NCBI GenBank assembly: GCA_964567785.1
Contig: CAZMOK010000007.1
Coordinates: 4,254 to 68,253 of the forward strand
Direction: 5' to 3'
DNA from: an uncultured Bacteroidales bacterium
GTDB lineage: Bacteria; Bacteroidota; Bacteroidia; Bacteroidales; JAGOPY01
DNA length: 64,000 nt
Part shown: one piece after another, positions 7,455-31,937 of the stretch
Position numbering within the stretch: position 1 is the first letter of the stretch
How the letters are laid out: every line of letters begins with the position of its first letter
The notes under the pieces: generated by a model
What the model saw: only the letters and a program-made list of their open reading frames with translations
Database searches by the model: none
What the model was told of the DNA's origin: nothing
Position numbers and translations under genes: made by a program

Positions 7455-7497
7455 ATTTAAGTATCGAAATGCAAAAATACGAAACAAAACAGTTAGG

Positions 7498-7517: not shown

Positions 7518-7591
7518 TTAATTGATCTAAAACAATGATTTTCATCTTCTATACCCTATTGCTGCATACCCGACTTAACAATTAGTTAATA

Positions 7592-7616
7592 TAGTTTTGC
7601 TGTGAATAATTTAACA
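7592..7616 (+). promoter_or_regulatory. Putative Bacteroidota -7 box TAGTTTTG immediately followed by the CRP-like box TGTGA-ataatt-TAACA
   Basis: TAnnTTTG match at 7592-7599. TGTGA-N6-TAACA at 7601-7616 has one mismatch to TGTGA-N6-TCACA. It lies about 60 nt upstream of the rhodanese lipoprotein start. Confidence 0.4.
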
Positions 7617-7677
7617 ATATTCTACTTACAATAAGGGATGAACCATAAAAAGATTTACTAATTAAAAACTTATTAAA

Positions 7678-8652: not shown

Positions 8653-8767
8653 GCCAATAATTAAGCTTTCATGACATAGTTCTTTGAAAAGGGTAATTCG
8701 AGGTGGCTGGCCGTCAGGTGCAGAGACCCGGGTTACCCTTTCAGTTTTATCAAAAATCATTAAATAA

Positions 8768-9859: not shown

Positions 9860-9909
9860 TAGCTGATATTTTATTTAAAATTGTAAAACCAAATAAATAC
9901 TTACTAAAA

Positions 9910-12090: not shown

Positions 12091-12145
12091 TGGCCGTTAG
12101 CTTTTGGCTGTTTGATTCTATTATATATTTTTAGCCATCAGCCTT

Positions 12146-13903: not shown

Positions 13904-14420
13904 GTTTTAATTTTTTGATTTACAACAATTTATGTTGTTCCTTATGTTCAATGCATCGAGTAGCAAGATACTTAATATGAGTTTAGATGTCTCCAACACA
14001 ACTCCGAAATTGTTAAAAACCTTCTCAAAGGTTGACAAACGTGGTAATACTGCCCCCCGCCCCGGTTAACTAAAGTCAGGTAAAGTGTTAAAATCAGCAT
14101 TTGCCTGAGCATTTCCAGGAGTAGAAACGAAATTATGTTGATAATTATAATTATTTGTTTTTCAGTTCTTTAATGAAATTTTAAAAAACTTTTTCAATTA
14201 ATGACCGTAAAAAATAGGAATAATTTCATTTGACCACTGTGTCACCCGGCAAAAATTACGAACAATTAAAAGTCAACCATTTTAGAATATTTCTAAATAG
14301 TAAAAATCCGTCTTACTTAATTTGATGAAAATGATAAATCATTATAACACATAGCGATAAAACCTTTCAGTACCACTACCATGCTCATGAACTCATTTAA
14401 ACTAATTAAATCGCCAAAAA

Positions 14421-18833: not shown

Positions 18834-18861
18834 AAGTAATAACCTGACAGGTATCTCACGC

Positions 18862-18895
18862 GGTCACGTTCGCCCTGAACGTGGCCGTTTTTTTT
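18862..18895 (+). terminator. Rho-independent terminator after the S8 peptidase gene
   Basis: GGTCACGTTC-gccct-GAACGTGGCC followed by a T9 run. Confidence 0.7.
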
Positions 18896-18930: not shown

Positions 18931-19557
18931 GTGTCCCATAGCCATACAAATATTACGGCAATTATACTCTCAGGCGGTAAAAGCAGCAGGATGGGTAACG
19001 ATAAAGGCCTTGTGAAACTTAATGGCAAACCCCTGGTCAAATATGCCATAAGCACCCTTGAAAAACGCACTGCCAATATTGTTATCAGTTCAAACTCTGA
19101 GGAGTACCAGGAATTTGGCAAACCGGTAGTGAAAGATATCCACAATGGCATAGGCCCGATGGGGGGAATACATGCAGGCCTTCATTTCAGCAAAAGCAAA
19201 TTAAACCTGGTCCTTTCCTGCGATATGCCTTTCGTAACTCATCATCTTTACGATCTGTTATTGAGAAAAATGGAAAACTCGTTGGTTGCAGTCCCCTGGT
19301 ACCGTAACGACCACTTTGAACCAATGGCTGCCATCTATCATAAAGACATCCTTCCTTATTTGGAGGGGTATATCGGTAAAGGAAACTTCAAATTGCCCGA
19401 ACTCTTTAATGAAATCCCGGTTGAACGGATCAGGCTCCCTATCGACAAGGAATTTTTCCACCCGCATTACTTTTTCAATGTAAATACGGAAAGCGACCTA
19501 AAAGCAGCAGGAAAGATTTTGAATGAATTTCCGGGGAGAGAGCAGTGCTCAATTTAA
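18931..19557 (+). CDS. mobA: Molybdenum cofactor guanylyltransferase
   Basis: ITAIILSGGKSSRMGNDKGLVKLNGKPL and LSCDMPF motifs. Start placed at GTG 18931 because the longer ORF runs through the upstream terminator and overlaps the peptidase gene. Confidence 0.75.
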   Translation: MSHSHTNITAIILSGGKSSRMGNDKGLVKLNGKPLVKYAISTLEKRTANIVISSNSEEYQEFGKPVVKDIHNGIGPMGGIHAGLHFSKSKLNLVLSCDMPFVTHHLYDLLLRKMENSLVAVPWYRNDHFEPMAAIYHKDILPYLEGYIGKGNFKLPELFNEIPVERIRLPIDKEFFHPHYFFNVNTESDLKAAGKILNEFPGREQCSI

Positions 19558-19591
19558 AAAGGGAAAAACAATAAGGCTAAATGAAACTTCT

Positions 19592-20140
19592 ATGCTCAAA
19601 CTTCCAAACGCATTAATAATCGTAGGTACTAACCGGAATGCCGGCAAAACTACCCTGGCCTGTGATATCATCAGGAGGTTCTCATCTCCCGAAAAAATAA
19701 CCGGGATCAAGATCTCCCCGCATTTTCATGAATTGGACGATGATGCAATCATCGTTGAAAAGAATGAAGATTTTGTAATTGTTAAGGAATCAAAACAAGG
19801 CACTGTAAAAGACAGCTCGAGGATGCTGGATGCAGGGGCTCACGAAGTCTACTACATACAGGTATGGGACATGAACATAGAGAAGGCCTTCAGGACACTC
19901 ATAAAGCATATCGACAATTCATCACCGCTGGTATGCGAATCGGGATGGCTTAGAACGGTTGTTGAGCCGGGGCTTTTCCTGATCCTCAACAGAAAGGGTA
20001 ACACAGACATCAAGGAAAGTATTTCAGAATACAAAAAGCTTCCTCATCATTGGATTGAATTTGATGGGAAAGGTTCTGATAAAGGGCTGGAAAAAATAAC
20101 CCTTGAAAACAACAGTTGGAAAATCAAAGATCAATCCTGA
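19592..20140 (+). CDS. MobB-like P-loop protein (molybdopterin-guanine dinucleotide biosynthesis adapter-like)
   Basis: Walker A GTNRNAGKTT. GIKISPHFHE and KDSSRMLDAGA parallel E. coli MobB GLIKHTHHD and KDSYELRKAGA. Start set at ATG 19592. Confidence 0.55.
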   Translation: MLKLPNALIIVGTNRNAGKTTLACDIIRRFSSPEKITGIKISPHFHELDDDAIIVEKNEDFVIVKESKQGTVKDSSRMLDAGAHEVYYIQVWDMNIEKAFRTLIKHIDNSSPLVCESGWLRTVVEPGLFLILNRKGNTDIKESISEYKKLPHHWIEFDGKGSDKGLEKITLENNSWKIKDQS

Positions 20141-22866
20141 AAATACCATGCAGGCAGAATGCATGCAGATGATCTTTCTTCGAGTACGGAGCTGAAATCC
20201 CACAGCGATCGCTGCATTATCTCCGATTCTTCTTCGTGGCAGTGCAGGCAACTGCCTACGAGCAGGATTTTTCGCTGTTCTGCAACGTTGAACGGGCGGG
20301 CCCCCGGCCTGGTAGCAGCCTGATCGGTCCTCCCGGTCATGAAGGGTATCCAGGCATCTTCCGGCAAACCATCCTCTTTTCTCGGTGCATATTTATTCCC
20401 GAAACTGAAAACACCCTTACCCCCTTCAGTATTATAGACCAGTTCACCCCTGCCATAGCCAATTGCCAGGGGATCGAGGTGACATGATATGCAGCTCCTG
20501 GAGCCGGCTGAAGTTGTATGAGGGGATATCGGCGAATGGAGCCTTTTGAATATTTCCGGGGCTCCGGCTTGGCCGGGAAACCCGGATCTGTCTATTGTCA
20601 AGATCATTCCCGGTGTAAAAGTGCTTATTAACTTATTTTCTCCATCTTCGTCCAGCACACCGAGAACAGGTTCCCCGGCGAGGTATTTCCCGACAAATTC
20701 GATCCACTCGCCCTTTTTCTCCCTGTATTCCAACAGGTCGAAACCTGCGGCTTCCTTATCATATGCATTGTGGCATCCAATACATTGCGGTACCCACGAT
20801 GAGTGGCATGAATTGCAATCCAGGTTTCTGTGGGCTTCTGTTTTTCCGCACACATCGGCAGGAGGATATAAGGGATAGATAGTATCATTGTTCTTTCCCC
20901 TGAGAAAGTATTCACTTTCTTTTACCACCGTGTTAACCATAGCCAACCCTGATGTTCTGCTCCTGATAAATAACCCGCCGGGTTTGTTGAATCCCCTGAG
21001 TGCGGCAATCTTTGCCGCTTCATAGTCAAGATAACCGGTTGTTACCACTTCAGGATCTCCATAAAAATGGCAGTCCTCACACCCTACCTTCACCTGCTCT
21101 TCCTTATGGTGATAGAGGTTTCCATCACCCATTAAACCAAAGGATATATGACAATCTATACATGACATCCCGGATTGATGGTGAACATCGGGGGGCATAT
21201 CCACCATCACCCTGTAGTCGTCCAGGACCGTATAATCATGACCCGGTGGAAGTTTATCCGAGTCCATAAGAGATTCATGCAGTCCCATGTAGCTCAATGA
21301 GATCCTGCCCGACCTGCTGTGACAGCCAAAGCAGTGGTCGTCGCTGATGGCAACCGAAAGTGAAGGATGATGCCGGGGCGATTCCCCGGTTTTCAGCCAA
21401 TTCTCCCGTTCCGCAAGGGATTTGAGCGAATGCTCATCATAATTGAGGTGACAGGCATTGCAACCGCCACCTCTTGATAGCTGGCCAATGGGGCCGGGCT
21501 CTTCCTTGGGGTGGCCGAGATGGCAATGCGCACAAAGATCCCGCAGGTGCTCGTCAGCGGGAGTGTGCCCTATTTCCTCAATATGTGAAAGAACTGAAAG
21601 TGACTCAGATTCATCAAACACATACCGGTTTACACTTACCATCCCGCTAAGCGTTGTCATGATCGAATTATCCACCCTGGATGTTATTTCGGGATGGCAA
21701 CCGGCAGTACCACAACTTCTTCGGGCATCTGCAAGGTTACCCGGAACAATGAGCATATCTTTATGGGCCCTTTCCTTATGCATGGTAAAAGGATCACCCC
21801 CATGGCAACTTGCACACCCAATTGCAGAAGGATCGTGTGAAGTCGTAAGTCCTGTCATTCCTTCATGGCAAACCATACATCCCTCAAACCTTTCACCGGT
21901 CTTTTCTGTCAGTGAAATGCCGTCAGTATATTCCTCCGGAAAACTTGTATTGACGGGGTGATAAACAACTGAAAACAGATTACCGTTCTTCCCTGCCTGT
22001 AAAGACCAGGACCAGTCCTCACCCCGGAAAAAGGAACCGATAAGTGTCAGTACAAGGTAAGCAAGTCCGATAATAAGCAAAGAACGTTTGAGTATCTTGT
22101 TAGGCCCCTGCCTTAATACCCTCACAAGGTAAAAAAGACCGAAAAGCAGAATAAACACCCACCAGATCTGCAACGGATTGGCCATCCAGTGAAGGATCTC
22201 CTGCAAACCTGTAAAATACCATGGACCCTTGGTTGCGAGCTCATAGCCATCGTGCAGGGGCGCCCTGAAAAAGAAGGATATGATGATCAACAGGAAAAAA
22301 GCAATAAGAAACCTGAAAAGGTCGGGCCAGACCGATCTGACGTGTTCATAGGTGAAAGCAATAATTAAAATAGTTGCTGTGGCAATATGATGCACATAGA
22401 TCAACTGGAAATCATCTTCGGTACCCAGTAATGAATAATCCAGGTAATATCCTATAAAGGGAATGCCTGAGAGCAATCCGGAAAAGATCCTCCTTGCCTG
22501 AAGGGCATCTGCATCCCCTTTGAGTATAAAACCTGACAGCATGGCAAAGAAAACAATGGCAATGGTAAGGGTAAGCCTTAACCAGACTCCGCCGCTGACA
22601 TTTTCTTCGGTATTCTGAAAAAAATGATCAAAAATGTGGATTATGGTCAATATCAGAAAAGCCTGCGCACTCCAGAAGTGCAGGTTCCTGAAAAGGTTAC
22701 CGGCAGGATTTTCTATAACCATAAGGCTTAGTGAACCATACGGATCATCAACATCGTAGGGAATAGCCAGCAAAACACCTGATATTATACAAATGATCAG
22801 CGATGAGACTGCCATCCAACCATAAGTATCGAATTTTATGAGCTTTGCTATTCTTTTCAGCTTCAT
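20131..22866 (-). CDS. Fusion protein: cytochrome b6 + subunit-IV-like 7-TM domain with a C-terminal periplasmic domain carrying 12 c-haem motifs
   Basis: H63-x13-H77 and H160-x14-H175 lie in predicted helices B and D. GPWYF (PEWY-like) at aa 214-218. 11 CxxCH plus one Cx4CH (C385-GTAG-C390-H391) lie between aa 330 and 877. Confidence 0.8.
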   Translation of the reverse strand: MKLKRIAKLIKFDTYGWMAVSSLIICIISGVLLAIPYDVDDPYGSLSLMVIENPAGNLFRNLHFWSAQAFLILTIIHIFDHFFQNTEENVSGGVWLRLTLTIAIVFFAMLSGFILKGDADALQARRIFSGLLSGIPFIGYYLDYSLLGTEDDFQLIYVHHIATATILIIAFTYEHVRSVWPDLFRFLIAFFLLIIISFFFRAPLHDGYELATKGPWYFTGLQEILHWMANPLQIWWVFILLFGLFYLVRVLRQGPNKILKRSLLIIGLAYLVLTLIGSFFRGEDWSWSLQAGKNGNLFSVVYHPVNTSFPEEYTDGISLTEKTGERFEGCMVCHEGMTGLTTSHDPSAIGCASCHGGDPFTMHKERAHKDMLIVPGNLADARRSCGTAGCHPEITSRVDNSIMTTLSGMVSVNRYVFDESESLSVLSHIEEIGHTPADEHLRDLCAHCHLGHPKEEPGPIGQLSRGGGCNACHLNYDEHSLKSLAERENWLKTGESPRHHPSLSVAISDDHCFGCHSRSGRISLSYMGLHESLMDSDKLPPGHDYTVLDDYRVMVDMPPDVHHQSGMSCIDCHISFGLMGDGNLYHHKEEQVKVGCEDCHFYGDPEVVTTGYLDYEAAKIAALRGFNKPGGLFIRSRTSGLAMVNTVVKESEYFLRGKNNDTIYPLYPPADVCGKTEAHRNLDCNSCHSSWVPQCIGCHNAYDKEAAGFDLLEYREKKGEWIEFVGKYLAGEPVLGVLDEDGENKLISTFTPGMILTIDRSGFPGQAGAPEIFKRLHSPISPHTTSAGSRSCISCHLDPLAIGYGRGELVYNTEGGKGVFSFGNKYAPRKEDGLPEDAWIPFMTGRTDQAATRPGARPFNVAEQRKILLVGSCLHCHEEESEIMQRSLWDFSSVLEERSSACILPAWYFQD

Positions 22867-23270
22867 GAATAAAGCTTAACTATTATCTGGTTTCCACTTC
22901 GCGTGAATTCTAATTGTTTCAGGTTGTTTTCTGCCGGTCCTTTGAGCACATTGCCTGTTGAGGCCGAAAACCGTGAACCGTGGCAGGGACACACAAGAAT
23001 ATCATTGTGCTGTTTGGTGATCCTGCAACCTAAATGTGTACATGTTGTCGACAGGATCTCTATCTTATCCTCTTTCCTGACCGTTATTATTTTACCTGAG
23101 AGGCCTGTACCTTGTGGAATGGAATCTATGTTTATGCGCATGGTCAGATTTTCACGATGTGAAACGGTTTTACGGGCCATGAAAAACCAGGCGCCTGCTA
23201 AAGGGAGCATAAGCAAATAGCCCAGTGCCTTAATGAAATTTTTTCTCGATATTTCAGTTTTCCCTTTCAC
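22863..23270 (-). CDS. Rieske [2Fe-2S] protein, bc1/b6f type
   Basis: Boxes CTHLGC and CPCHGS. N-terminal SRKNFIK (RK variant of the Tat motif) plus a TM anchor. 4-nt ATGA overlap with the downstream cyt b fusion gene. Confidence 0.85.
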   Translation of the reverse strand: MKGKTEISRKNFIKALGYLLMLPLAGAWFFMARKTVSHRENLTMRINIDSIPQGTGLSGKIITVRKEDKIEILSTTCTHLGCRITKQHNDILVCPCHGSRFSASTGNVLKGPAENNLKQLEFTRSGNQIIVKLYS

Positions 23271-23599
23271 TTTCTTCTATCACAGAATAATAAACAGGTT
23301 AGGTCCTCATACATCTTCTCTTGACTGATAAATGCATGAAATCATTCTGGTTGTTGCCAGCAGACCGTTTTTTTTATGACTATTATCAATAACCATCAAA
23401 ATACTGATTGACTGTTCTTTACAACTATCCCCCGCAATTTAGAATTTGTCAAAATAATTTTATAAAGTATTGACTTTATGGATCTTGCAAAATGATAGTT
23501 CAATAATTTATATTAATTACTATTTTAAATAGTTGATTCTCAATATTTTTACAATTAAACTTAAGATGCTTAAATATAGATAAAACTATATATTATTTT

Positions 23600-23627
23600 T
23601 AAATTTGTGCTGTTACAAAAATAACAG
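23600..23627 (+). promoter_or_regulatory. Putative -7 box TAAATTTG followed by inverted repeat CTGTTA-caaaaa-TAACAG upstream of the molybdoenzyme operon
   Basis: TAnnTTTG match at 23600-23607. 6-bp inverted repeat at 23610-23627, 44 nt upstream of the ATG at 23671. Confidence 0.35.
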
Positions 23628-23670
23628 ATAATACACTACAAAACGGAATAATCCTTCAATATCAGAATAT

Positions 23671-25905
23671 ATGGCTAACAGAAGGGATTTTATCAAAATA
23701 TCGGCTCTTGGCGTTGGAGGAGCGGCCCTTGCTACAACATCCATGAATTGGGTATTGGGCTCTTCCTCCGGTGAAGAGGTGGAGAGTTCATTGCCAAAGC
23801 TTACCAGGTATCCTACCTATTGTGAGGTCTGTTTCTGGAAATGTGCAGGGTGGACATATCTGGATGAACAGGGAAAAATAAAAAGCCTTTACGGAAATTA
23901 TGATGATCCCCATTGTAACGGGCGTTTATGTCCGAGGGGCACAGGTGGTGTTGGAATGTACCATGATAAAGACAGGCTGAAGAGACCTCTTATCAGGGTT
24001 AAAAAAGACGGAAAACAAACCTTCCGCGAAGCCTCCTGGGATGAAGCTCTCGGGCTGGTTGCCGAAAAGATGAAAGAGATAAAGGAAAAGTATGGTCCGG
24101 AATCAATGGCCGTATTCAACCATGGGTCATCAGGGCATTTTTTTGGCCACCTCCTGAAGGCCTATGGTTCTTCGAACATTACAGCCCCTTCTTATGCACA
24201 ATGCAGGGGGCCGAGGGAAGTTGGTTTTGCAACTACATTCGGGGCCGGTGTTGGTTCACCCGAACCAACAGATATAAGAGATACAAGGTGCCTTGTTCTT
24301 ATTGGCTCACACATAGGTGAGAACATGCATAACGGACAGGTCCAGGAAATGTCAGATGCAATTGACAAAGGCGCTGCCATCATAACAGTGGACCCCAGGT
24401 ATTCTACGGCTGCTTCAAAATCAAAATTCTGGCTTCCGATAAAGCCTGCCACCGATATGGCGCTCCTGCTGGCCTGGATACACGTTTTGCTTTATGAAGA
24501 ACTCTACGACAAAGAATACATAGAACAATATGGTTTTGGTCTTGATCAGCTCAGGAAGCACGTTGAGAACATGACCCCTGAATGGGCTTATGGCATTACT
24601 ACAATTAAACCAGAACTTATAAGAGAAAGTGCACGGGAAATGGCTGACGCCTCACCCTCGGTGATCATTCACCCGGGAAGGCATGTGACATGGTATGGTG
24701 ACGACACGCAGCGATCGAGAGCCATTGCAATCCTGAACGCCCTGCTTGGTTCCTGGGGACGCAGGGGTGGCTTTTATTTTAAGGAAGGTATAAGTGTACC
24801 GGAATATCCCCATCCCGAGTACCCTAAACCAGAATGGTCATGGAAAGAGGTGCTCAATGGTAAATATCCTCTCGCAGGGCTGTCGGTTTCCAATGCACTT
24901 GTTGAAGCATCCTGCCCACCGGAAACTGAGCACCGGATTCACGGGTGGATCGTAACAGGGACAAACCTGCCCATGACAATGCCGAACAAGGAATCGCTAA
25001 TGGAGGCCATTGATTCGCTCGACTTCCTGGCTGTTTGTGATACTATGCCGATGGAAATAGCCAGCTATGCAGATGTGGTCCTTCCCGAGTGCACCTATCT
25101 CGAAAGATACGACGAGTTGCGTAATTCCCCCCACAGGGAACCCTATCTTGCACTGAGGATGCCTGCCGCCGAACCAGCAGGCGACTCGAAACCGGCCTGG
25201 TGGATTGCCAAAAAAATAGGTGAAGAACTCGGACTGGACGATTACTTCAACTATGAAGATTATACTGAGGTTCTCGACTGGCAATTGAACAAGCTCGGCT
25301 CTTCACTTGAGGAAATGCAGAAAATTGGGATAAAGAAGTTCGATAGACAATCAGGTCCGCTTTATCTTGCTCCGGGCGAGAAGTACCGGTTCAACACGAA
25401 TACGGGTAAGATTGAATTGTATTCAACCGACCTGGCAAATCTTGGTTTTGACCCAATGCCTGTTTACACGCCACACCCTCAGCCACCTGCTGGTTTCTAT
25501 CGCCTGATTTATGGCAGGGCGCCTATGCATACTTTCAGTCGTACGGCCAATAACCCTAACCTGACAGACCTTATGGAAGAAAATTCGGTTTGGGTAAATC
25601 CACGGGTTGCCGACCTGTGGGGCCTGAGAAAAGACCAGTATGTGTGGCTCAAGAATCAGGACGGTAAGGTTTCATACTTTCCCGTTAAAGTGAGGGTGAC
25701 CGAACGTATAAGATGGGACTCTGTTTATATGGTCCATGGATTCGGTCATCGCATAAAGAAACTCAGCCGTGCTTATGGCAAGGGCACCAACGACTCCGAC
25801 CTTATAACAAATGTTATGACCGACCCGATAATGGGCGGAACGGGTATGAGAGGCAATTTCGTAACCTTTTTAACCGAAGAACCTGAAAAGGAGGATAGAT
25901 CATGA
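23671..25905 (+). CDS. Tat-exported molybdopterin (bis-MGD) oxidoreductase catalytic subunit, PsrA/PhsA-like
   Basis: Twin-arginine signal MANRRDFIKISALGVGGAALA. N-terminal FeS motif C-x2-C-x3-C...C (CEVCFWKC...GRLCPRG). 744 aa. Followed by FeS and NrfD subunits in the order A-B-C. Confidence 0.85.
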   Translation: MANRRDFIKISALGVGGAALATTSMNWVLGSSSGEEVESSLPKLTRYPTYCEVCFWKCAGWTYLDEQGKIKSLYGNYDDPHCNGRLCPRGTGGVGMYHDKDRLKRPLIRVKKDGKQTFREASWDEALGLVAEKMKEIKEKYGPESMAVFNHGSSGHFFGHLLKAYGSSNITAPSYAQCRGPREVGFATTFGAGVGSPEPTDIRDTRCLVLIGSHIGENMHNGQVQEMSDAIDKGAAIITVDPRYSTAASKSKFWLPIKPATDMALLLAWIHVLLYEELYDKEYIEQYGFGLDQLRKHVENMTPEWAYGITTIKPELIRESAREMADASPSVIIHPGRHVTWYGDDTQRSRAIAILNALLGSWGRRGGFYFKEGISVPEYPHPEYPKPEWSWKEVLNGKYPLAGLSVSNALVEASCPPETEHRIHGWIVTGTNLPMTMPNKESLMEAIDSLDFLAVCDTMPMEIASYADVVLPECTYLERYDELRNSPHREPYLALRMPAAEPAGDSKPAWWIAKKIGEELGLDDYFNYEDYTEVLDWQLNKLGSSLEEMQKIGIKKFDRQSGPLYLAPGEKYRFNTNTGKIELYSTDLANLGFDPMPVYTPHPQPPAGFYRLIYGRAPMHTFSRTANNPNLTDLMEENSVWVNPRVADLWGLRKDQYVWLKNQDGKVSYFPVKVRVTERIRWDSVYMVHGFGHRIKKLSRAYGKGTNDSDLITNVMTDPIMGGTGMRGNFVTFLTEEPEKEDRS

Positions 25906-26435
25906 GATACGCCATGGCAATAGACACTAAGAAGTGCGTCGGTTGCAGCGACTGTGTTGTTGCTTGCCAGACCGAGAACAATGTGCCCATTGGTTACTGC
26001 CGTGACTGGGTTACCGAAACCGTTGATGGCAGCTATCCGAACGTTGAAATAGAGCTTCGTTCAGAAAGATGCAATCACTGTGAAAATGCACCCTGCGTGA
26101 GATGCTGCCCTACGGGTGCCAGCCATATTGTAGACGGCGGAGTTGTACTTGTTACACCCAATGAATGTATTGGCTGCGGCGCCTGTATCCAATCATGCCC
26201 ATATGATTCAAGATACTCACACCCGGAAGGGTATGTAGACAAATGTACATTTTGTAACCACAGGATCACTAAGGGCCAGAAGCCGGCATGCGTAGAGGTA
26301 TGTCCGACTAAATGCATGTATTTCGGCGACCTTGACGATCCGAACAGCGAAGTGTCAAACATCTTGAAAAACAGGAAATATAAAGTGCTTGCCCCGGAAG
26401 CAGGCACCATACCCCATGTATATTTTTTAGTCTGA
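25902..26435 (+). CDS. 4Fe-4S ferredoxin-type electron-transfer subunit (PsrB/NrfC-like)
   Basis: Four Cys clusters (CVGCSDCVVAC, CNHCENAPC, CIGCGACIQSC, CTFC...C..C). 4-nt overlap with the catalytic subunit gene. Confidence 0.9.
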   Translation: MRYAMAIDTKKCVGCSDCVVACQTENNVPIGYCRDWVTETVDGSYPNVEIELRSERCNHCENAPCVRCCPTGASHIVDGGVVLVTPNECIGCGACIQSCPYDSRYSHPEGYVDKCTFCNHRITKGQKPACVEVCPTKCMYFGDLDDPNSEVSNILKNRKYKVLAPEAGTIPHVYFLV

Positions 26436-26448
26436 AAAAACTGATAAC

Positions 26449-27390
26449 ATGAGAGAAGAACTTTTTGTTAGCGGACGCGACATACCAAATATTGACCCCT
26501 ATCTCAATATCTGGCACTGGCAGATACCGATATACCTCTTCCTTGGAGGCCTTGCAGCCGGTATCCTTTTCTTCGCCGCATTATACACGATCCTCGGGAA
26601 GGAAAAGGAAATGGCTACCACAACAAAGTGGGCCCCTTTCATAGTTCCCGGTGCACTGGTAATAGGCTTGGTGATGCTCTTTCTCGACCTCAAGCACCAG
26701 TTATTCTTCTGGCAACTTTACACGACGATCAGGCTGGAATCACCAATGTCATGGGGAGCCTGGGTGCTGATGCTGATCACACCTTTGTCAATGCTCTGGG
26801 TAGCCAGCTATATCAAAGAGGTAATACCTAATTGGAAATGGAAGTTCAGATTTATGGATCTACTTGAGGCCTGGGTTATAAGAAACAGGAAAGGCCTTGC
26901 ATGGGTTATAATCGTTCTTGCAGTGATACTAGGCATTTACACCGGTATACTGCTCTCAGCCTTTAATGCCAGACCCCTCTGGAACACCTCCATACTTGGG
27001 CCACTGTTCCTTGTTTCAGGTATGTCAACAGGAGTGGCCACCATAATGTGGATGTCGAAAAACCACTACGAAAGAAAGGTAATGGGAAGGATAGACCTGA
27101 TCCTTATCACTGTTGAATTGTTCTTCATTACACATCTGATAATGGGTTTTCTGGCTTCCTCAAGTGTGCAGATTGCAGCCGCTGAGCTTTTCCTTGGCGG
27201 ACCCTTCACAGTATCATTCTGGGTGTTTGTGGTGATATTCGGCCTTGTGTTCCCGGCACTGCTGGAGGTTCTTGAGCTCGTGGGATACAGGATACCCGTT
27301 GCAATCCCTTCCCTTTTGATCCTTTTCGGAGGGTTGGTCTTTAGGTTCATAATGGTTGAAGCAGGGCAGATAACAAGATATTTATATTAA
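26449..27390 (+). CDS. NrfD/PsrC-type integral membrane quinol-interacting subunit
   Basis: 313 aa, about 8 TM helices. N-terminal W-x-W-x-I-P-x-Y-L-F-L-GG pattern typical of the NrfD family. Confidence 0.85.
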   Translation: MREELFVSGRDIPNIDPYLNIWHWQIPIYLFLGGLAAGILFFAALYTILGKEKEMATTTKWAPFIVPGALVIGLVMLFLDLKHQLFFWQLYTTIRLESPMSWGAWVLMLITPLSMLWVASYIKEVIPNWKWKFRFMDLLEAWVIRNRKGLAWVIIVLAVILGIYTGILLSAFNARPLWNTSILGPLFLVSGMSTGVATIMWMSKNHYERKVMGRIDLILITVELFFITHLIMGFLASSSVQIAAAELFLGGPFTVSFWVFVVIFGLVFPALLEVLELVGYRIPVAIPSLLILFGGLVFRFIMVEAGQITRYLY

Positions 27391-27404
27391 ATACTTAAAA
27401 GAAT

Positions 27405-27932
27405 ATGATTGATAAAAAGAGAGATGGCACAAAGTACATCAACCCATACCTGGGCGGTTTTTTGCTCGGGCTGGTACTGCTTGCCACTTTTTACGTAACA
27501 GGACGCGGACTGGGTGCCAGCGGGGCTGCCAAGAGCACTGTTGTGGCAGCCGTTCAGTCAGTGGCCCCCAAACATGCAGAAAAGTCGGATTACTACAGCA
27601 TTTTCATCAGTGATGATTCACATCCGCTCAACACCTGGCTCGTGTTCGAGGTACTTGGTATCTTTGCCGGTGCTTTTCTTTCAGGCGCACTGGCAGGGAG
27701 GCTCAGGGTAAAAACTGAACACTCACCAAAGATCACTTCCCGCCAGAGACTGCTCTATGCCTTTATAGGTGGTTCGCTATTTGGCATCGGCTCGCAACTT
27801 GCCAGGGGATGTACCAGCGGCGCAGCGCTTTCCGGAATGGCCGTGCTTTCGCTCGGTGGCTTCATTACTATGCTCAGCATCTTTGGGAGTGCCTTTATTT
27901 TTGCGTGGTTACTCAGAAAAATCTGGATATAA
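27405..27932 (+). CDS. YeeE/YedE-family sulfur-compound transporter, half-size subunit 1
   Basis: Multi-TM with the conserved ARGCTSGAALSG motif. Confidence 0.8.
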   Translation: MIDKKRDGTKYINPYLGGFLLGLVLLATFYVTGRGLGASGAAKSTVVAAVQSVAPKHAEKSDYYSIFISDDSHPLNTWLVFEVLGIFAGAFLSGALAGRLRVKTEHSPKITSRQRLLYAFIGGSLFGIGSQLARGCTSGAALSGMAVLSLGGFITMLSIFGSAFIFAWLLRKIWI

Positions 27933-27947
27933 TAAACTCTATATAAT

Positions 27948-28538
27948 ATGGGACCTTTAATTCCAAATGAAATAATAGATCCTGCCTGGAACAATGTGCT
28001 GGCCGTTTTGCTGGGCATGGCTTTCGGGTTTGTACTTGAAGCCTCAGGCTTCTCTTCCTCCCGGAAAATAATGGGGACTTTTTTCGGATACGACTTTGTG
28101 GTGCTCAGGGTTTTCTTCACCGCTGCCATTACTGCTATGGTCGGCATCTTCTATTTTGATTACCTTGGTATACTCGACTTTTCCATGCTTTACATACACC
28201 CTACATACCTCACATCCGCCATCATCGGTGGCATCGTAATGGGGCTCGGTTTTTCATTCGGGGGGTATTGCCCTGGGACAAGCTATTGTGCCGTAGCTAT
28301 TGGAAAGATAGATGCCCTTGTTTTTTCTGTCGGGCTCTTCTTCGGTATATTTGTCTTCTCAGAAGTTTATCCGTTGATAGAAAACATGTACCTCAACAAA
28401 TCACTTGGCCCCATAAAGGTCTTTGAATCAATAGGTATTTCAGGCGAACTCTTCATCTTTCTTCTGATCATTGCAGCTGTTGCCATTTTTGCAGTTACTT
28501 CTTATTTGCAGCAGCGGGTGAAAAAGGTTGAATATTAA
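27948..28538 (+). CDS. YeeE/YedE-family sulfur-compound transporter, half-size subunit 2
   Basis: Multi-TM with GGYCPGTSYCA motif. Immediately follows subunit 1. Confidence 0.8.
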   Translation: MGPLIPNEIIDPAWNNVLAVLLGMAFGFVLEASGFSSSRKIMGTFFGYDFVVLRVFFTAAITAMVGIFYFDYLGILDFSMLYIHPTYLTSAIIGGIVMGLGFSFGGYCPGTSYCAVAIGKIDALVFSVGLFFGIFVFSEVYPLIENMYLNKSLGPIKVFESIGISGELFIFLLIIAAVAIFAVTSYLQQRVKKVEY

Positions 28539-28540
28539 AA

Positions 28541-29164
28541 ATGAGATCCATGAAATTGAAATACGTAATCAGTGCAGCCATATTGATCCTGTTGGGTTTC
28601 ATTCTCGTTATACTGCCCGACAGGTCAGAATCTGATGACCTGGAACCTGAGATCCTCCTGCAGGAGATCATTGATCCCGGTAGGTTCCTGACCACCGACA
28701 TGATTGCAGAAAGGCTGGTAAATGAAGACCCTTCACTCTTCCTCGTTGATGTCAGGTCCATATACGACTATCAAGAGTTCACACTGCCTGGTGCTTTTAA
28801 CATCCCGCTTAAAGAGATTCTCATGGATCAATGGCAGGAATATTTGTCGCAATACGGAAAAGATGTTGTTTTCTTTTCGAATGGATCCATTAAGGCCGAC
28901 AAAGCCTGGATCCTTTCGAGAAGGCAGGGCCATAAAGATATCTTTGTTATGAAGGGCGGACTTAATGAATGGTTCAGGACAGTGATGAACCCTGTGCCAC
29001 CTCCCCAGACTGCCCCTAAGGAAGCCTTTGAACTCTATTCTTTCAGAAGGGGCGCTGCACAATTTTTTACTGGGGGCAATACTATTGAGCCTCCGGAAGT
29101 GGAAGCAGAGAAGGTAACCGTAAGCAGGAAAAAGAAAAAAACCGTTGTTGAAGGAGGGTGCTAG
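28541..29164 (+). CDS. Membrane-anchored rhodanese-homology protein without a loop Cys, ending in the ...RKKKKTVVEGGC tail (paralog 1)
   Basis: N-terminal TM anchor. Rhodanese pattern FLVDVRSIYDYQEFTLPGAFNIP...VVFFSNGSIKADKAW...MKGGLNEW, with Ser where the catalytic Cys normally sits. The only Cys is the C-terminal residue. Confidence 0.75.
   Translation: MRSMKLKYVISAAILILLGFILVILPDRSESDDLEPEILLQEIIDPGRFLTTDMIAERLVNEDPSLFLVDVRSIYDYQEFTLPGAFNIPLKEILMDQWQEYLSQYGKDVVFFSNGSIKADKAWILSRRQGHKDIFVMKGGLNEWFRTVMNPVPPPQTAPKEAFELYSFRRGAAQFFTGGNTIEPPEVEAEKVTVSRKKKKTVVEGGC
29134..29162 (+). repeat. 29-nt direct repeat copy 1 (encodes KKTVVEGGC)
   Basis: GAAAAAAACCGTTGTTGAAGGaGGGTGCT. Matches 29781-29809 at 28 of 29 positions. 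Confidence 0.9.
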
Positions 29165-29166
29165 AT

Positions 29167-29811
29167 ATGGAAAAAAAAGGTAAGAGAACACTGAACTCAG
29201 TTATTGCCTTCATAATGATCATTGTGATCCTTGTGGCAGGCTATATATTGATCGTACCTTCCGACATTGATTACCAGCTCAGCACCGAGGAGATGCTTGA
29301 GAAGGCAGCCATGTCGGATTACCAGGTTTACCCCGAAGATGTAGCTTATTTTGCAGATACAGAAGATGAAGGTTTTTTCCTGGTGGATGTGAGGGACCCT
29401 CACTCCTACCAGACCGCCCATATAGGCAATGCTGTCAATATCCCGGTCCATGATCTGCTGGAATACGAAAACAGGCAACTCTTCGATAAACTTGCTGAAG
29501 ATTCCTTGGAAGTTATCCTTTATGGTAAAGACCAGTTGGAAGCCAACGGAGGCTGGATGCTGCTCCGACAGCTCGGATACAGTAATGTAAAAGTTATGCT
29601 GGGTGGTTACGATTACTACTCAACCAGTTCCCTCAATCTCTACGACCTTCCTGAAATACCTGAATATATGGTAGAAGAGCCCATGTTTGATTTTGCAGGT
29701 ACCATGGAAGAGATGAGTGGGGGTGATTTTGAAGTAACTCCGGCTGATCAGCCTGAAATGGTCGTACCCATCCGAAAGAAGAAAAAAACCGTTGTTGAAG
29801 GGGGGTGCTGA
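29167..29811 (+). CDS. Membrane-anchored rhodanese-homology protein without a loop Cys, ending in the ...RKKKKTVVEGGC tail (paralog 2)
   Basis: N-terminal TM anchor. FLVDVRDPHSYQTAHIGNAVNIP...VILYGKDQLEANGGW...MLGGYDYY. The only Cys is the C-terminal residue. ATG 29167 preferred over GTG 29158. Confidence 0.75.
   Translation: MEKKGKRTLNSVIAFIMIIVILVAGYILIVPSDIDYQLSTEEMLEKAAMSDYQVYPEDVAYFADTEDEGFFLVDVRDPHSYQTAHIGNAVNIPVHDLLEYENRQLFDKLAEDSLEVILYGKDQLEANGGWMLLRQLGYSNVKVMLGGYDYYSTSSLNLYDLPEIPEYMVEEPMFDFAGTMEEMSGGDFEVTPADQPEMVVPIRKKKKTVVEGGC
29781..29809 (+). repeat. 29-nt direct repeat copy 2 (encodes KKTVVEGGC)
   Basis: GAAAAAAACCGTTGTTGAAGGgGGGTGCT. Matches 29134-29162 at 28 of 29 positions. 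Confidence 0.9.
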
Positions 29812-29813
29812 TA

Positions 29814-30500
29814 TTATCCGTTACGGCTGATATTGATCAGCCTTTCGTAATCCAGTATCCCGATGTCCTTCGCATCTATCCTGATCACACCAATATCAGA
29901 TAATTCTTTCAATGCACGCGTTACACTTTCCCTTGTAACGCCGATCCATGCAGCCAGGTCGTTGCGGGTCAGTATAAAATCGAATTCCTTTTTCCTGTGG
30001 ATCTCATCTGCAAAAAAGAGTATCGCATCTGCAAGGCGACCGTTAACTTGCTTTTGGGATAGGTTTACGAACCTCTCGAAATAAGAAAGCTCATCCTGAC
30101 ACAGGTATATGATTATTTCATAGGAAAATTCGGGGTTCCTCTTCAGTAATTGCCTGAAAGAGAAATTGTCAATGTAACAAACCCTCGAATCCATAAGTGC
30201 TGATGCTGAATACCGGTGTATCTTCTGCGACAGTATGGTTTGAAGTCCTATATATGAACCGGGAGCAATAATTTTCAAGATCTGGTCTTTTCCACTCGGA
30301 CCGGTCATGTGTATTTTTGCCAGTCCTGATTTGATATAGGCTATGTGCGACGACAACTTGCCCTGATGAATTATGCTATCTCCCTTTTTCAGGGTGACCT
30401 CAGCACAATTCTCATTCAAAAATTCCAGCTCTTTATTGCCAAGGGTTTCTACAGCCCTTGATTTTATAGAACAATTCTTACATTCCTGCTTTTTCACCAA
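29814..30500 (-). CDS. Crp/Fnr family transcriptional regulator (paralog 2)
   Basis: cNMP-binding-like barrel plus HTH LTRNDLAAWIGVTRESVTRALKELSDIG, with R-E-x3-R as in the E. coli CRP recognition helix. N-terminal Cys pair C7/C10. Confidence 0.85.
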   Translation of the reverse strand: MVKKQECKNCSIKSRAVETLGNKELEFLNENCAEVTLKKGDSIIHQGKLSSHIAYIKSGLAKIHMTGPSGKDQILKIIAPGSYIGLQTILSQKIHRYSASALMDSRVCYIDNFSFRQLLKRNPEFSYEIIIYLCQDELSYFERFVNLSQKQVNGRLADAILFFADEIHRKKEFDFILTRNDLAAWIGVTRESVTRALKELSDIGVIRIDAKDIGILDYERLINISRNG

Positions 30501-30519
30501 CTAATTACTTTATAGTTAT

Positions 30520-30535
30520 TGTGACATAAATCACA
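30520..30535. promoter_or_regulatory. Perfect CRP-consensus palindrome TGTGA-cataaa-TCACA
   Basis: Read directly from the sequence. It lies 20 nt upstream of the paralog-2 regulator start, in the divergent intergenic region. Confidence 0.65.
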
Positions 30536-30600
30536 CACAAATATATTAATTATCACAGTCATGAGGGATGCATATCACGCCTTTTTGTATTAAATATCAC
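30530..30600 (+). repeat. Four ATCAC half-sites phased at exactly 22 bp
   Basis: ATCAC at 30530, 30552, 30574 and 30596. The first is the right arm of the palindrome. Confidence 0.7.
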
Positions 30601-30675
30601 TTATTTATATGTAGAATTATATATGTATAATCGTAATTTTATATTGTAGTTATAAATACTTAAAAGCATTCGGAT

Positions 30676-30897
30676 ATGAGACATACACTGGCAAACTTTG
30701 CAATACTTTTTGGCTTTATCGGCTTTTTGGGATATATTTTCCTTATTATCGCCGGTTTTTTGGGTTGCTGTGCCGGAATTACAACGCTTTTTTATCACAA
30801 GATGGTTATGTTCATTCTGATAGCAGCAGTGGTTATTTTCGGTATCTGTATGTATAATAATTGTTGCAGTGTAATAAGAAAAAAGAACGCTAAATAA
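30676..30897 (+). CDS. 73-aa two-TM membrane protein with two CC pairs
   Basis: Hydrophobic helices FAILFGFIGFLGYIFLIIAGFLGCC and MFILIAAVVIFGIC. Basic C-terminus. A hairpin plus T-run follows. No family recognised. Confidence 0.5.
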   Translation: MRHTLANFAILFGFIGFLGYIFLIIAGFLGCCAGITTLFYHKMVMFILIAAVVIFGICMYNNCCSVIRKKNAK

Positions 30898-30930
30898 CTA
30901 CTCAGCCACTTAATAATTCTACATAAGTTG

Positions 30931-30965
30931 CATCCATATGCCTGATGGCGTATGGATGTTTTTTA
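30931..30965 (+). terminator. Rho-independent terminator after the 73-aa gene
   Basis: CATCCATA-tgcctgatggcg-TATGGATG followed by a T6 run. Confidence 0.6.
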
Positions 30966-31085
30966 TTCCAAAGAACTCATTTACAATCTAAAAATAACAC
31001 TCAAATATGATATAGCCAATATATAGCTCTTCAAAATCATTATAAATAAGCATGTGGAACACTCTATTTACTATTTTTGTTTTTC

Positions 31086-31937
31086 ATGGCAGAAACGGTT
31101 TCAAGCAAGAAAAGGAAAGAGGGTGGCAAGAAGGATGAAAAGGAGATGTCATTCTGGGAGCACCTTGAAGAGTTGCGCTGGCATTTGGTGAGATCCATTG
31201 CGGCAGTGCTTGTTATTGCCGTGATTGCCTTTCTCAACCGGCACCTGGTCTTCGACCAGATAATACTGGCACCTAAAGATTCAGAATTTATTACCAATAG
31301 ACTGCTTTGCAGGCTTTCCGAAATACTCAATGTAAAAGCCCTTTGCCTCGACAATCTCTCACTGAGCATAATCAACATCCGGATGTCGGGGCAGTTCCTC
31401 ACGCACATGTACGTTTCCATTATTTCGGGAGTCGTGCTTGCATTCCCGTACATAATATACGAGATATGGAGATTTGTACAGCCGGCGCTCTATGCAAAGG
31501 AAAAAAAACACTCAAGGGGCGCTGTCATTGTTAGCAGCCTGTTGTTCCTGGTCGGCGTTTTTTTCAGTTATTTTCTTATAGTTCCTCTTACGCTGCACTT
31601 TCTTGGCACCTACCAGGTAAGCGGTAACGTTGAGAACACGATCTCCCTGAGCTCATACATAAGCACTGTTGTGTCTGTGACATTCGCCGTAGGAATTGTT
31701 TTCGAGCTTCCGATACTGGTGTATTTCCTTACCAGGGTTGGTTTGCTCACTCCCGGCTTTATGAAGAAGAACAGGAAATATATGATCGTCATTCTCCTCC
31801 TGCTCTCGGCCATAATTACCCCGCCCGATGTCTTCAGCCAGATCATGGTGGTTATACCCCTGATGGGGCTCTACGAGCTGAGTATTTCCATATCAAAAAG
31901 GGTATTCAGAAAGAGAACAATGGAACTTGCAGGGTAA
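31086..31937 (+). CDS. tatC: Twin-arginine translocase subunit TatC
   Basis: MSFWEHLEELRWHLVRSI, six TM helices, PPDVFSQ motif. Start could be 31077 or 31086. Confidence 0.9.
   Translation: MAETVSSKKRKEGGKKDEKEMSFWEHLEELRWHLVRSIAAVLVIAVIAFLNRHLVFDQIILAPKDSEFITNRLLCRLSEILNVKALCLDNLSLSIINIRMSGQFLTHMYVSIISGVVLAFPYIIYEIWRFVQPALYAKEKKHSRGAVIVSSLLFLVGVFFSYFLIVPLTLHFLGTYQVSGNVENTISLSSYISTVVSVTFAVGIVFELPILVYFLTRVGLLTPGFMKKNRKYMIVILLLLSAIITPPDVFSQIMVVIPLMGLYELSISISKRVFRKRTMELAG

Follow-up and report, generated by a model that had tools for sequence, protein, structure and literature searches.

A conserved gene cluster of Bacteroidales that probably encodes the inner-membrane core of an anaerobic sulfur-compound respiratory system

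We analysed a stretch of 64,000 nucleotides from an uncultured Bacteroidales bacterium (assembly GCA_964567785.1, contig CAZMOK010000007.1; this whole 64-kb stretch is called the window throughout), and in it the gene cluster at positions 18931-31937, where a PsrABC-type molybdoenzyme, a split YeeE transporter and two rhodanese-fold proteins ending in Gly-Gly-Cys (GGC) are encoded beside a Rieske protein and a fusion of cytochrome b with a 12-haem cytochrome c domain. The core genes are one conserved, co-inherited unit, grouped far beyond chance. Judged from gene content, conservation, linkage and homology, the region probably encodes the inner-membrane core of a respiratory system that is conserved and under anaerobic regulation, and that most likely reduces inorganic sulfur compounds containing S-S bonds; the most likely substrate is polysulfide or elemental sulfur, with thiosulfate and tetrathionate as possible ones. 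Together with a porin-rhodanese operon at 6756-10761, the cluster appears to give the window a distant counterpart of the Geobacter proteins ExtH, ExtI, ExtM, ExtO and ExtP, with PsrABC in the place of MccSep. Gene calls are those of the open reading frame (ORF) list of the window, annotated by Pfam and NCBIfam scans (E-values in brackets), and the core region comprises the following genes.

18931-19557, plus strand: mobA, molybdenum cofactor guanylyltransferase (Pfam NTP_transf_3, 9.8e-35)
19523-20140, plus strand: P-loop protein, weakly MobB-like (Pfam MobB, E=0.0013, under the cut-off)
20131-22866, minus strand: cytochrome b/12-haem fusion protein, 911 aa (Pfam Cytochrome_B)
22863-23270, minus strand: Rieske [2Fe-2S] subunit (Pfam Rieske, 9.4e-12)
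23671-25905, plus strand: psrA, molybdopterin catalytic subunit with a twin-arginine translocation (Tat) signal (full-length match to Thermus PsrA)
25902-26435, plus strand: psrB, four-cluster ferredoxin subunit (Pfam Fer4_11 and related models)
26449-27390, plus strand: psrC, NrfD-type membrane quinol subunit (Pfam NrfD, 8e-45, full length)
27405-27932, plus strand: YeeE/YedE half-transporter 1 (Pfam Sulf_transp, 1.3e-24, C-terminal half of the model)
27948-28538, plus strand: YeeE/YedE half-transporter 2 (Pfam Sulf_transp, 1.4e-12, N-terminal half of the model)
28541-29164, plus strand: Rhd1, membrane-anchored rhodanese-fold protein (Pfam Rhodanese, 1.2e-14)
29158-29811, plus strand: Rhd2, paralogue of Rhd1 (Pfam Rhodanese, 1.8e-14)
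29814-30500, minus strand: Crp/Fnr-family regulator (Pfam cNMP_binding and HTH_Crp_2)
30676-30897, plus strand: 73-aa Cys-rich membrane protein with two helices (conserved GCC and MYNNCC motifs)
31077-31937, plus strand: tatC (TIGR00945, 183.6 bits, above the cut-off of 132.7)

The seven genes from psrA to rhd2 (psrABC, the two yeeE halves, rhd1, rhd2) overlap or lie no more than 15 bp apart and a terminator scan showed none convincing between them, so that they look like one operon. The Rieske and fusion genes form a second operon divergent from the psr operon, with mobA alongside.

Linkage between these genes was followed from both ends. A scan anchored on the fusion protein, with one genome per species, yielded 494 loci (related loci carry L numbers here), and the window proteins were compared by tblastn with the 80 best of them; the fully flanked set consists of the 39 loci in which the fusion gene has 9 kb or more of sequence to either side. 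Among these 39, the Rieske gene is present in 38, psrA in 29, both YeeE halves in 29, the rhodaneses in 26-27 and mobA in 27. For the reciprocal scan, metagenome contigs were searched with an alignment of the rhodaneses and presence was counted where the flank sufficed: a YeeE half was found at 46/46 such loci, psrA at 24/24 and the second rhodanese at 52/52, and a Rieske or fusion gene lay within the approximately 5 kb available upstream of psrA in 10/18. An earlier note on this DNA had made its reading depend on co-occurrence of these modules in other genomes, and the counts for the Rieske gene, for psrA and for YeeE at the rhodanese loci bear it out. The parts of the cluster keep together in genomes of Bacteroidales, Ignavibacteriales, Melioribacteraceae and Chlorobiota. 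Most Bacteroidales have divergent psr and Rieske operons; in Ignavibacteriales and Melioribacteraceae (L030, L060, L070) the two are colinear, in the order mobA-Rieske-fusion-psrABC-yeeE-rhd, and in other loci regulators intervene between the parts. Since the linkage survives such reshuffling of gene order over distant lineages, it appears to be functional and not merely inherited synteny.

Loci that lack psr genes point the same cytochrome partner at another enzyme. Six of the ten fully flanked psr-less loci have an octahaem module by the Rieske and fusion genes, whose octahaem cytochrome belongs to the tetrathionate-reductase (Otr) family TIGR04315 (574 bits, cut-off 375) and whose partner is a PhsC-like cytochrome b, with a PAS domain where examined (L040, L048); most loci of this variant also encode a lipoprotein rhodanese whose acidic tail (HDDGGEVGGC) again ends in GGC. 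The octahaem module stands by the Rieske/fusion genes in nine loci (L031, L037, L039, L040, L048, L054, L057, L062, L075) and beside a psr cluster in three more (L069, L094, L158). One further psr-less locus has a divergent Mo enzyme with YeeE. Because a Psr-, Otr- or Mo-enzyme/YeeE module adjoins the fusion gene in 36/39 fully flanked loci, the Rieske/cytochrome b/12-haem protein looks like a dedicated partner of sulfur reductases and not like a general complex III; within 10 kb of the fusion gene, no sulfur reductase is recognisable in L020, L055 and L074. The Chlorobiota metagenome-assembled genome (MAG) CSMAG_473 holds two octahaem-module loci (L031, L040).

PsrA aligns end to end with PsrA of Thermus thermophilus (PDB 2VPW; E=3.8e-191). 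Its cysteines C51, C54, C58 and C87, which would bind the FS0 cluster, are conserved at 0.97-0.99 in 69 orthologues, and C178, aligned with the position of the Mo ligand in the Thermus protein, is conserved at 1.00 in the same set. The gene order A-B-C, with ferredoxin and NrfD-type subunits downstream of the catalytic one, is the layout of complex iron-sulfur molybdoenzymes (CISM, PsrABC). The Psr-like enzyme that the earlier note had recognised is related over its full length to the Thermus quinol:polysulfide reductase and keeps the Mo-ligand Cys. The best NCBIfam match of PsrA is the thiosulfate reductase PhsA (472 bits, cut-off 694); PsrB matches ArrB, NrfC, DsrO and TtrB-like models, all under their cut-offs. 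A Psr/Phs-type gene of Melioribacter is induced by arsenate (PMC5492636), and a Psr accompanied by two sulfurtransferases has been remarked upon in Caldithrix (PMC5317091). We considered an arsenate reductase and rejected it as the leading idea: ArrA matches PsrA with 121 bits only, and YeeE, four rhodaneses and the Ext-like parts point to chalcogens. Both PsrA and the Rieske protein had been called Tat substrates. PsrA carries a twin-arginine motif, RRDF, and the Rieske signal peptide reads SRKNFIK, with Arg-Lys in the window and Arg-Arg in several orthologues (a pattern read by eye from the orthologue N-termini), as in a natural RK variant of the Tat motif.

The fusion protein contains 11 CxxCH and one CxxxxCH motif, which gives the 12 haem c sites that had been counted earlier, and all of them are invariant in 16 homologues. 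At least 1330 database proteins are homologous to it, nearly all of about 900 aa and without a name. Against NCBIfam, its residues 323-892 match ExtM over the whole length of the haem domain (3.3e-72) and its membrane part matches ExtP (2.4e-15). The cytochrome b part keeps the haem-b ligands H63/H77 and H160/H175 as well as K213-G-P-W-Y217, a variant of the PEWY-type Qo motif, all invariant. Six hydrophobic helices exceed the threshold, and the less hydrophobic helix B, which bears His residues and was added by eye, makes seven; with seven helices the haem domain would be periplasmic. The AF2 model of the fusion is usable in the membrane domain, and there Foldseek aligns the predicted model over 313-381 columns with full-length cytochrome b of bc1-type complexes; in the haem domain the predicted local distance difference test (pLDDT) falls below 50. 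A structural search for a catalytic haem was therefore dropped, as the model of the haem domain was too poor and Foldseek returned only the cytochrome b fold. Besides the 12 motif His the haem domain has only 10-11 invariant non-motif His; with fewer invariant distal His than haems, at least one haem may have a ligand other than His. Two extra cysteines lie outside the haem motifs, C902 (invariant) and C673 (near-invariant), and hint at a haem with His/Cys or His/Met ligation as in TsdA, SoxAX or MccSep. No other ORF of the window carries more than one CxxCH motif, and genes for MccSep and Otr are absent from the window. The Rieske boxes CTHLGC (CxHxGC) and CPCHGS (CxCHGS) are invariant in 73 orthologues, and the best NCBIfam matches of this subunit are the Rieske proteins of b6f and bc1 complexes; where a bc-type complex would have a mono- or di-haem cytochrome c1, f or cc subunit, the window has the fused 12-haem domain instead.

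The second unusual part of the cluster is the pair Rhd1 and Rhd2, both of which end in KKKKTVVEGGC. The two proteins are 27% identical overall (BLASTP), yet their last 11 residues are the same, and so are 32/33 nt of the tail DNA (window 29120-29164 and 29767-29811). Their catalytic rhodanese Cys is replaced, the loop being FFSNGSIKA in Rhd1 and LYGKDQLEA in Rhd2, so that the CX5R signature is lacking; Ser110 and Asn111 are near-invariant in the family alignment. The only Cys of either protein is the C-terminal one, which the earlier note had singled out and which proves to be the sole conserved feature of the tails: 69/73 GGC-rhodanese ORFs of the genome loci end in GGC or EGC, and in 117/120 database homologues GGC falls among the last four residues (GGC, GGCE, GGCG or GGCS), usually after a Lys/Arg-rich tract. 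The AF2 model of Rhd1 consists of an N-terminal helix, a rhodanese core with pLDDT above 90 and a last stretch of about 30 residues that is structureless (below 50). Most Rhd1 homologues begin at M4, i.e. at 28550. In 84 loci that encode both paralogues, the seven positions ahead of GGC agree at 5.5/7 within a locus and at 3.0/7 between loci, a sign of concerted evolution that is confined to the last ~10 codons. Docking of both tails at a single partner site that evolves with them would account for this pattern, as would gene conversion of the tail.

The two YeeE half genes jointly cover the Pfam Sulf_transp model, with the halves in swapped order. Each half has one invariant Cys, C136 (RGCTSG) in half 1, conserved at 1.00 in 88 orthologues, and C108 (GYCPG) in half 2, conserved at 0.99 in 101 orthologues. 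Half 1 matches NCBIfam TsuA at 6.7e-12, below the cut-off (45 vs 400 bits), and the halves also match YedE selenium-transporter models. At L081:8623-10615, two YeeE halves and a GGCE-tailed rhodanese stand alone among carbohydrate-utilisation genes, with no Psr or Rieske genes. Because they persist there without Psr, channel and carrier look like the tightest, independent sub-module of the cluster. Tentatively, we regard it as possible that Rhd1 and Rhd2 represent a new type of carrier that binds sulfur or selenium covalently, in which a Cys-less rhodanese scaffold would hold a SoxY-like GGC arm that shuttles the chalcogen between import rhodaneses, PsrA or the octahaem reductase, the 12-haem domain and the split YeeE.

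The import rhodaneses of this proposal are encoded in a separate block of the window, divergent from a regulator gene of its own.

6756-7487, minus strand: crp2, second Crp/Fnr-family regulator, divergent from the porin operon (Pfam cNMP_binding and HTH_Crp_2)
7601-7616, plus strand: TGTGAATAATTTAACA, CRP-type palindrome between crp2 and rhdA (candidate; a hybrid with one mismatch to TGTGA-N6-TCACA)
7678-8652, plus strand: RhdA, predicted lipoprotein with a signal ending in ITSC, catalytic Cys kept (Pfam Rhodanese, 2.7e-21)
8768-9859, plus strand: outer-membrane anion porin of the phosphate-selective O/P family, ExtI-like (Pfam Porin_O_P, 5.6e-17)
9910-10761, plus strand: RhdB, secreted tandem rhodanese with catalytic Cys, CLTSVRA (Pfam Rhodanese, two stretches, 7.4e-33)

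The sole NCBIfam match of the porin is ExtI (1.1e-14, under the equivalog cut-off), and RhdB matches a 3-mercaptopyruvate sulfurtransferase-like model (1.1e-32) and ExtH (7.8e-15). The block was found with the cluster in 30 related loci, where it takes four positions, namely by mobA, between psrA and the Rieske gene, after rhd2, or in the psr-less variants, and orthologues of crp2 with 53-68% identity adjoin rhodanese-porin-rhodanese genes in related loci. The description of the region as a self-contained island in the earlier note therefore does not stand, as a conserved operon of a porin and catalytic rhodaneses with its own Crp regulator lies outside it. In the window, positions 10861-18833 between the porin operon and mobA hold queA, a gamma-glutamyltranspeptidase gene and a gene for a 1470-aa S8 peptidase, the latter with PKD and MAM domains and a weak match to the sorting domain of the type 9 secretion system (T9SS; E=0.0048, below the cut-off). 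Several related loci have the porin operon directly by mobA, or only queA between the two. We also considered an extracellular electron conduit and rejected it: the porin is of the anion-selective O/P/ExtI type, not MtrB, and no outer-membrane cytochrome is encoded.

Anaerobic regulation of the cluster is suggested by the Crp/Fnr-family regulator encoded downstream of rhd2, for which two candidate operators were located.

30520-30535, plus strand: TGTGACATAAATCACA, perfect CRP-type palindrome 20 bp upstream of the regulator gene, in the interval that separates it from the gene of the 73-aa protein
23611-23626, plus strand: TGTTACAAAAATAACA, palindrome and candidate Crp/Fnr-type operator, 61 bp upstream of psrA

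The first of these is the sole perfect match to TGTGA-N6-TCACA in the window, and perfect or one-mismatch sites occupy the equivalent place in L002, L006, L023 and L049. Sites the same as or close to the second occur at -66 and -74 in L023 and L049, and TGTTA-N6-TAACA with at most one mismatch is present in 18/61 psrA upstream regions against 2.9 in shuffled sequences (maximum 9). The FNR box TTGAT-N4-ATCAA was examined and discarded: the window shows no enrichment of it, and the promoters of the cluster do not contain it. Thus the dedicated regulator that the earlier note had described is confirmed as a Crp/Fnr gene, while its elaborate operator reduces to the two sites above. The regulator has conserved Cys at positions 7, 10, 32, 108 and 134 in 13 orthologues, with a spacing (C7-x2-C10, C32, C108) unlike that of E. 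coli FNR; its best NCBIfam match is Fnr, with 76 bits vs a cut-off of 228. These conserved Cys suggest a possible sensor of oxygen or of the Fe-S/redox type.

The closest known relative of the whole assembly is the Geobacter ext cluster (extHIJKLMNOPQS). There ExtH is a rhodanese lipoprotein, ExtI a porin with weak similarity to phosphate porins, ExtM a 12-haem cytochrome, ExtO a Rieske protein, ExtP a cytochrome b and ExtQ a membrane protein, and ExtKL is encoded as well (PMC5877670). In 2026, ExtKL was identified as MccSep, a five-haem selenoprotein polysulfide reductase that is induced by sulfur and essential for respiration of S0; the paper does not settle how polysulfide gets in or what donates the electrons, and it makes no mention of ExtM or of the Rieske protein (PMC13510729). 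The window fusion, porin and RhdB match the models of ExtM, ExtP, ExtI and ExtH, and a Rieske protein, cytochrome b, 12-haem cytochrome, rhodanese and porin are common to both systems. They differ in that cytochrome b and the 12-haem protein are fused in one 911-aa chain in the window, and in that the window lacks MccSep, ExtN, ExtS and ExtJ. Its terminal enzyme is PsrABC, or an Otr-type octahaem enzyme in the variant loci, where Geobacter has MccSep, and it adds the split YeeE, the GGC-armed pseudo-rhodaneses, mobA and the Crp/Fnr regulators.

Single parts of the cluster resemble other sulfur systems. Alongside the Psr of Wolinella succinogenes works Sud, a periplasmic sulfur transferase of the rhodanese type. 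The window enzyme resembles PsrABC of Thermus thermophilus (PDB 2VPW-2VPZ) as a three-subunit, Tat-exported Mo-bisMGD (molybdenum-bis(molybdopterin guanine dinucleotide)) enzyme with an NrfD-type quinol subunit; unlike the Thermus and Wolinella enzymes, it is encoded in an operon with a split YeeE and GGC-armed, Cys-less rhodaneses and is paired with a Rieske/cytochrome b/12-haem complex. The sulfur carrier SoxY has a C-terminal GGCGG swinging arm on an Ig-like fold and SoxZ as partner. Rhd1 and Rhd2 are comparable to it by analogy, having Gly-Gly-Cys at the far C-terminus of what seems a flexible tail and being encoded near sulfur redox enzymes and c-type cytochromes; unlike SoxY, they have a rhodanese fold, a membrane anchor and a polybasic tract, no SoxZ is present, and the context is reductive (Psr, Otr). 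The thiosulfate transporter YeeE/TsuA has as its partner YeeD/TsuB, a small, cytoplasmic, TusA-like protein bearing a Cys. With it the window transporter shares the Sulf_transp family, a conserved Cys in each pseudo-repeat and an adjacent gene for a small Cys-bearing partner, but it is split, and its partner, a rhodanese-fold protein with a membrane anchor, is predicted to lie in the periplasm. In the Srr operon of Bacillus selenitireducens, as summarised in PMC12481199, catalytic, Fe-S and NrfD-type subunits of the Psr family are joined by two rhodanese-domain proteins; that host, unlike the one studied here, is Gram-positive and has no porin, and neither a Rieske/cytochrome b/multihaem partner nor YeeE is reported for the operon. 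Psr enzymes, accessory rhodaneses, YeeE transporters and the Ext cluster are thus all known singly. Our literature searches found no prior account of the Bacteroidota/Ignavibacteriota cluster, of the cytochrome b/ExtM fusion or its systematic pairing with Psr or Otr, nor of the family of GGC-armed Cys-less rhodaneses or the concerted evolution of their tails, although such absence is not proof.

Put together, these parts suggest the following route for the favoured reading, reduction of S-S-bonded sulfur compounds. Anionic polysulfide, or another sulfur anion, would enter through the ExtI-like porin and be captured by the catalytic rhodaneses RhdA and RhdB, as by Sud in Wolinella. Sulfane sulfur may then be handed to the terminal Cys on the polybasic GGC arms of Rhd1 and Rhd2, which would present it to the Mo site of PsrA for reduction by menaquinol electrons arriving via PsrC and PsrB, and the split YeeE channel would let a sulfur species cross the inner membrane. 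The Rieske/cytochrome b/12-haem protein is envisaged as a second, potentially electrogenic menaquinol oxidase facing the periplasm; it may feed sulfur species, carrier-bound or free, or PsrAB, or in variant loci the octahaem enzyme of the tetrathionate-reductase type. This role is the least certain step of the mechanism.

Several points weigh against this reading. Function is deduced here from gene content, conservation, linkage and homology, and the counts given above are biased towards close relatives, as only the 80 best matches per scan were examined. The substrate of a Psr/Phs-type enzyme is not readable from sequence, relatives taking polysulfide, thiosulfate, tetrathionate, selenite and possibly arsenate. 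PsrABC is itself equipped with a quinol site, which leaves a second quinol oxidase without an evident purpose. A menaquinol-type Rieske centre has a potential of roughly +100 mV, far above that of the polysulfide/sulfide couple at about -260 mV, and electron flow from the Rieske/12-haem branch to polysulfide is for this reason hard to justify; the branch fits better with an acceptor of higher potential, e.g. tetrathionate or selenite, and the association with Otr-type enzymes likewise points to such an acceptor. On account of the Rieske potential and the Otr association we keep the substrate range broad, as S-S-bonded sulfur compounds, and treat selenite as the main rival. The likeness to Geobacter is one of homologues, not of equivalogs, all scores lying under the equivalog cut-offs (ExtM 244/800, ExtP 57/290, ExtI 54/150, ExtH 55/200), and in Geobacter the tie to sulfur runs through MccSep, a part played in it by ExtM, ExtO and ExtP being likewise putative. 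Finally, Rhd1 and Rhd2 are predicted to face the periplasm solely by the positive-inside rule. A possible precedent for the second quinol oxidase is the menaquinol:cytochrome c reductase of Campylobacter that, reportedly, Garg et al. described in 2018 as feeding periplasmic molybdoenzymes.

Two rival explanations keep the reductive direction and change the substrate. Tetrathionate and thiosulfate could be the main job, the Rieske/cytochrome b/12-haem complex feeding a high-potential S-S acceptor such as tetrathionate through an electrogenic Q-cycle, Psr/Phs reducing the thiosulfate that results, and YeeE importing thiosulfate or sulfite. Octahaem enzymes by the Rieske/fusion genes in nine loci and beside psr clusters in three more agree with this, as do PhsA as top NCBIfam match of PsrA, the membership of YeeE/TsuA in a thiosulfate transporter family and the thermodynamics of the Rieske centre. 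A Psr homologue of Shewanella does reduce tetrathionate and thiosulfate (PMC12949373). The window, however, holds no Otr gene, and four rhodaneses with an anion porin are more typical of the handling of zero-valent sulfur (Sud, ExtH/ExtI); we judge this explanation unlikely as it stands, and it overlaps the favoured one rather than opposing it. Unlikely, too, is respiration or detoxification of selenite or tellurite, for which an SrrA-like reductase would be supplied by ExtI-like selenite import, the rhodaneses and GGC arms would carry perselenide or selenotrisulfide, and YeeE/YedE would move selenium. The closest NCBIfam models (ExtM, ExtP, ExtI, ExtH) do bear the name 'selenite/tellurite reduction operon', Geobacter reduces less selenite and tellurite once ExtI is lost (PMC5877670), and SrrA of Bacillus selenitireducens is a selenite reductase of the Psr family encoded with two rhodanese-domain proteins (PMC12481199). 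The YeeE matches to YedE selenium transporters agree with selenite as well, and so would the redox potential of the Rieske/cytochrome b complex. On the other side, the Geobacter cluster is now tied to S0 respiration via MccSep (PMC13510729), and the wide distribution of the cluster (494 genome loci) contrasts with the environmental rarity of selenite. Over its full length PsrA comes closest to the Thermus polysulfide reductase, the alternative partner module is of the tetrathionate-reductase octahaem family, and neither selD nor selA lies near the cluster among the annotated ORFs.

The other two explanations give up reduction or the linkage itself. An oxidative direction, with the Psr-like complex oxidising sulfide or polysulfide and reducing menaquinone and the Rieske complex passing electrons on to an oxidase or a nitrogen-oxide reductase, would suit the usual place of a Rieske/cytochrome b complex downstream of quinone reduction. 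For green sulfur bacteria it has been suggested that Psr-like complexes act as sulfide:quinone oxidoreductases, and the hosts Draconibacterium and Maribellus are facultative anaerobes. We hold the oxidative direction to be very unlikely, with a regulator that looks FNR-like and has conserved Cys, no oxidase or c-type acceptor encoded nearby, a pyruvate:ferredoxin oxidoreductase in the window that is typical of anaerobic life, and characterised relatives (Thermus Psr, Geobacter Ext/MccSep) that are reductive. Least credible of all is that PsrABC, the YeeE-rhodanese pair and the Rieske complex are mere neighbours under shared anaerobic regulation, the last being a general menaquinol:cytochrome c reductase. 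Such independence would be in keeping with the solitary YeeE-rhodanese set of L081, with the three fusion loci that lack a recognisable sulfur reductase nearby and with the fact that PsrABC needs no extra quinol oxidase, but it is contradicted by the adjoining reductase modules in 36/39 loci, by an adjacency that outlasts several rearrangements and distant lineages, and by the association of Rieske protein, cytochrome b, 12-haem cytochrome, rhodanese and porin in Geobacter as well (PMC5877670).

Outside the two main operons, the ORF of mobA is open from 18793, and a terminator with a 13-bp stem at 18860-18888 closes the preceding peptidase gene; mobA matches NCBIfam MobA models at 1e-34 to 1e-39, under the equivalog cut-offs. 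The P-loop gene adjoins mobA in many related loci, and a sequence search of the PDB gave no relative of its product. The 73-aa protein has no Pfam or NCBIfam match, and its orthologues adjoin the Crp/Fnr gene in several loci. A second terminator with a 13-bp stem lies at 30930-30959, downstream of the 73-aa gene and upstream of tatC; counts in the promoter and terminator scan were no better than in shuffled sequences and only these two long-stem terminators are relied on. tatC itself is adjacent to the cluster in 6/39 and 8/18 loci only, usually with abhydrolase and pdxJ genes. Given the strong terminator before it, its housekeeping company and the few loci, its membership is doubtful and it is more likely a housekeeping neighbour. 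An Rfam search gave no hit, so no molybdenum cofactor (Moco) riboswitch. No tRNA was found in the window, no integrase or other mobility gene among the ORFs annotated (not every ORF of the window was), and the GC content of the region, 0.40-0.49, is similar to that of the rest of the window, without compositional anomaly; we rejected a mobile island on these grounds. Every gene that the earlier note had listed was recovered in its place by ORF, Pfam and NCBIfam analysis, and its views that the region is chromosomally resident and has no adjacent tatA (no tatA-like ORF was found) agree with ours. From its pair of maturation genes mobA stands, while the 'mobB-like' label for the P-loop gene has behind it a sub-threshold Pfam score and a position by mobA; tatC stands as a gene and not as a member of the island.

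Among the genome matches, an uncultured Bacteroidales MAG (L001) comes nearest, with 93% identity of the fusion protein. Genes for pyruvate:ferredoxin oxidoreductase, citrate synthase and isocitrate dehydrogenase lie at 52084-55614 and 1876-4590 of the window, the first of these enzymes fitting an anaerobic fermentative host. At 248-1477 a histidine kinase is encoded in which an N-terminal cyclic-nucleotide-binding domain replaces the membrane sensor, and proteins weakly similar to it (22-25% identity) are encoded near the cluster in L013 and L071.

The cluster bears on two questions, how poorly soluble and reactive zero-valent sulfur is delivered to a respiratory enzyme, and why a Rieske/cytochrome b complex sits in sulfur-respiration clusters. 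With approximately 494 loci, including those of the cultured strains Draconibacterium aestuarii Z1-6 (L042) and Maribellus sp. YY47 (L047), it offers beside Geobacter a second, independent and genetically approachable system that has a shared core and a different terminal reductase, and the GGC-armed pseudo-rhodaneses are a simple, testable handle on the carrier idea. If that idea is true, Rhd1 and Rhd2 would be the reductive, membrane-tethered counterpart of the Sox carrier system, and the recruitment of a bc-type complex into sulfur respiration in Bacteroidota, and possibly in Geobacter, would be explained. More broadly, the cluster suggests that many fermentative Bacteroidales and Ignavibacteria of sediments, digesters and sludge can respire sulfur compounds, which bears on the production of sulfide in these habitats.

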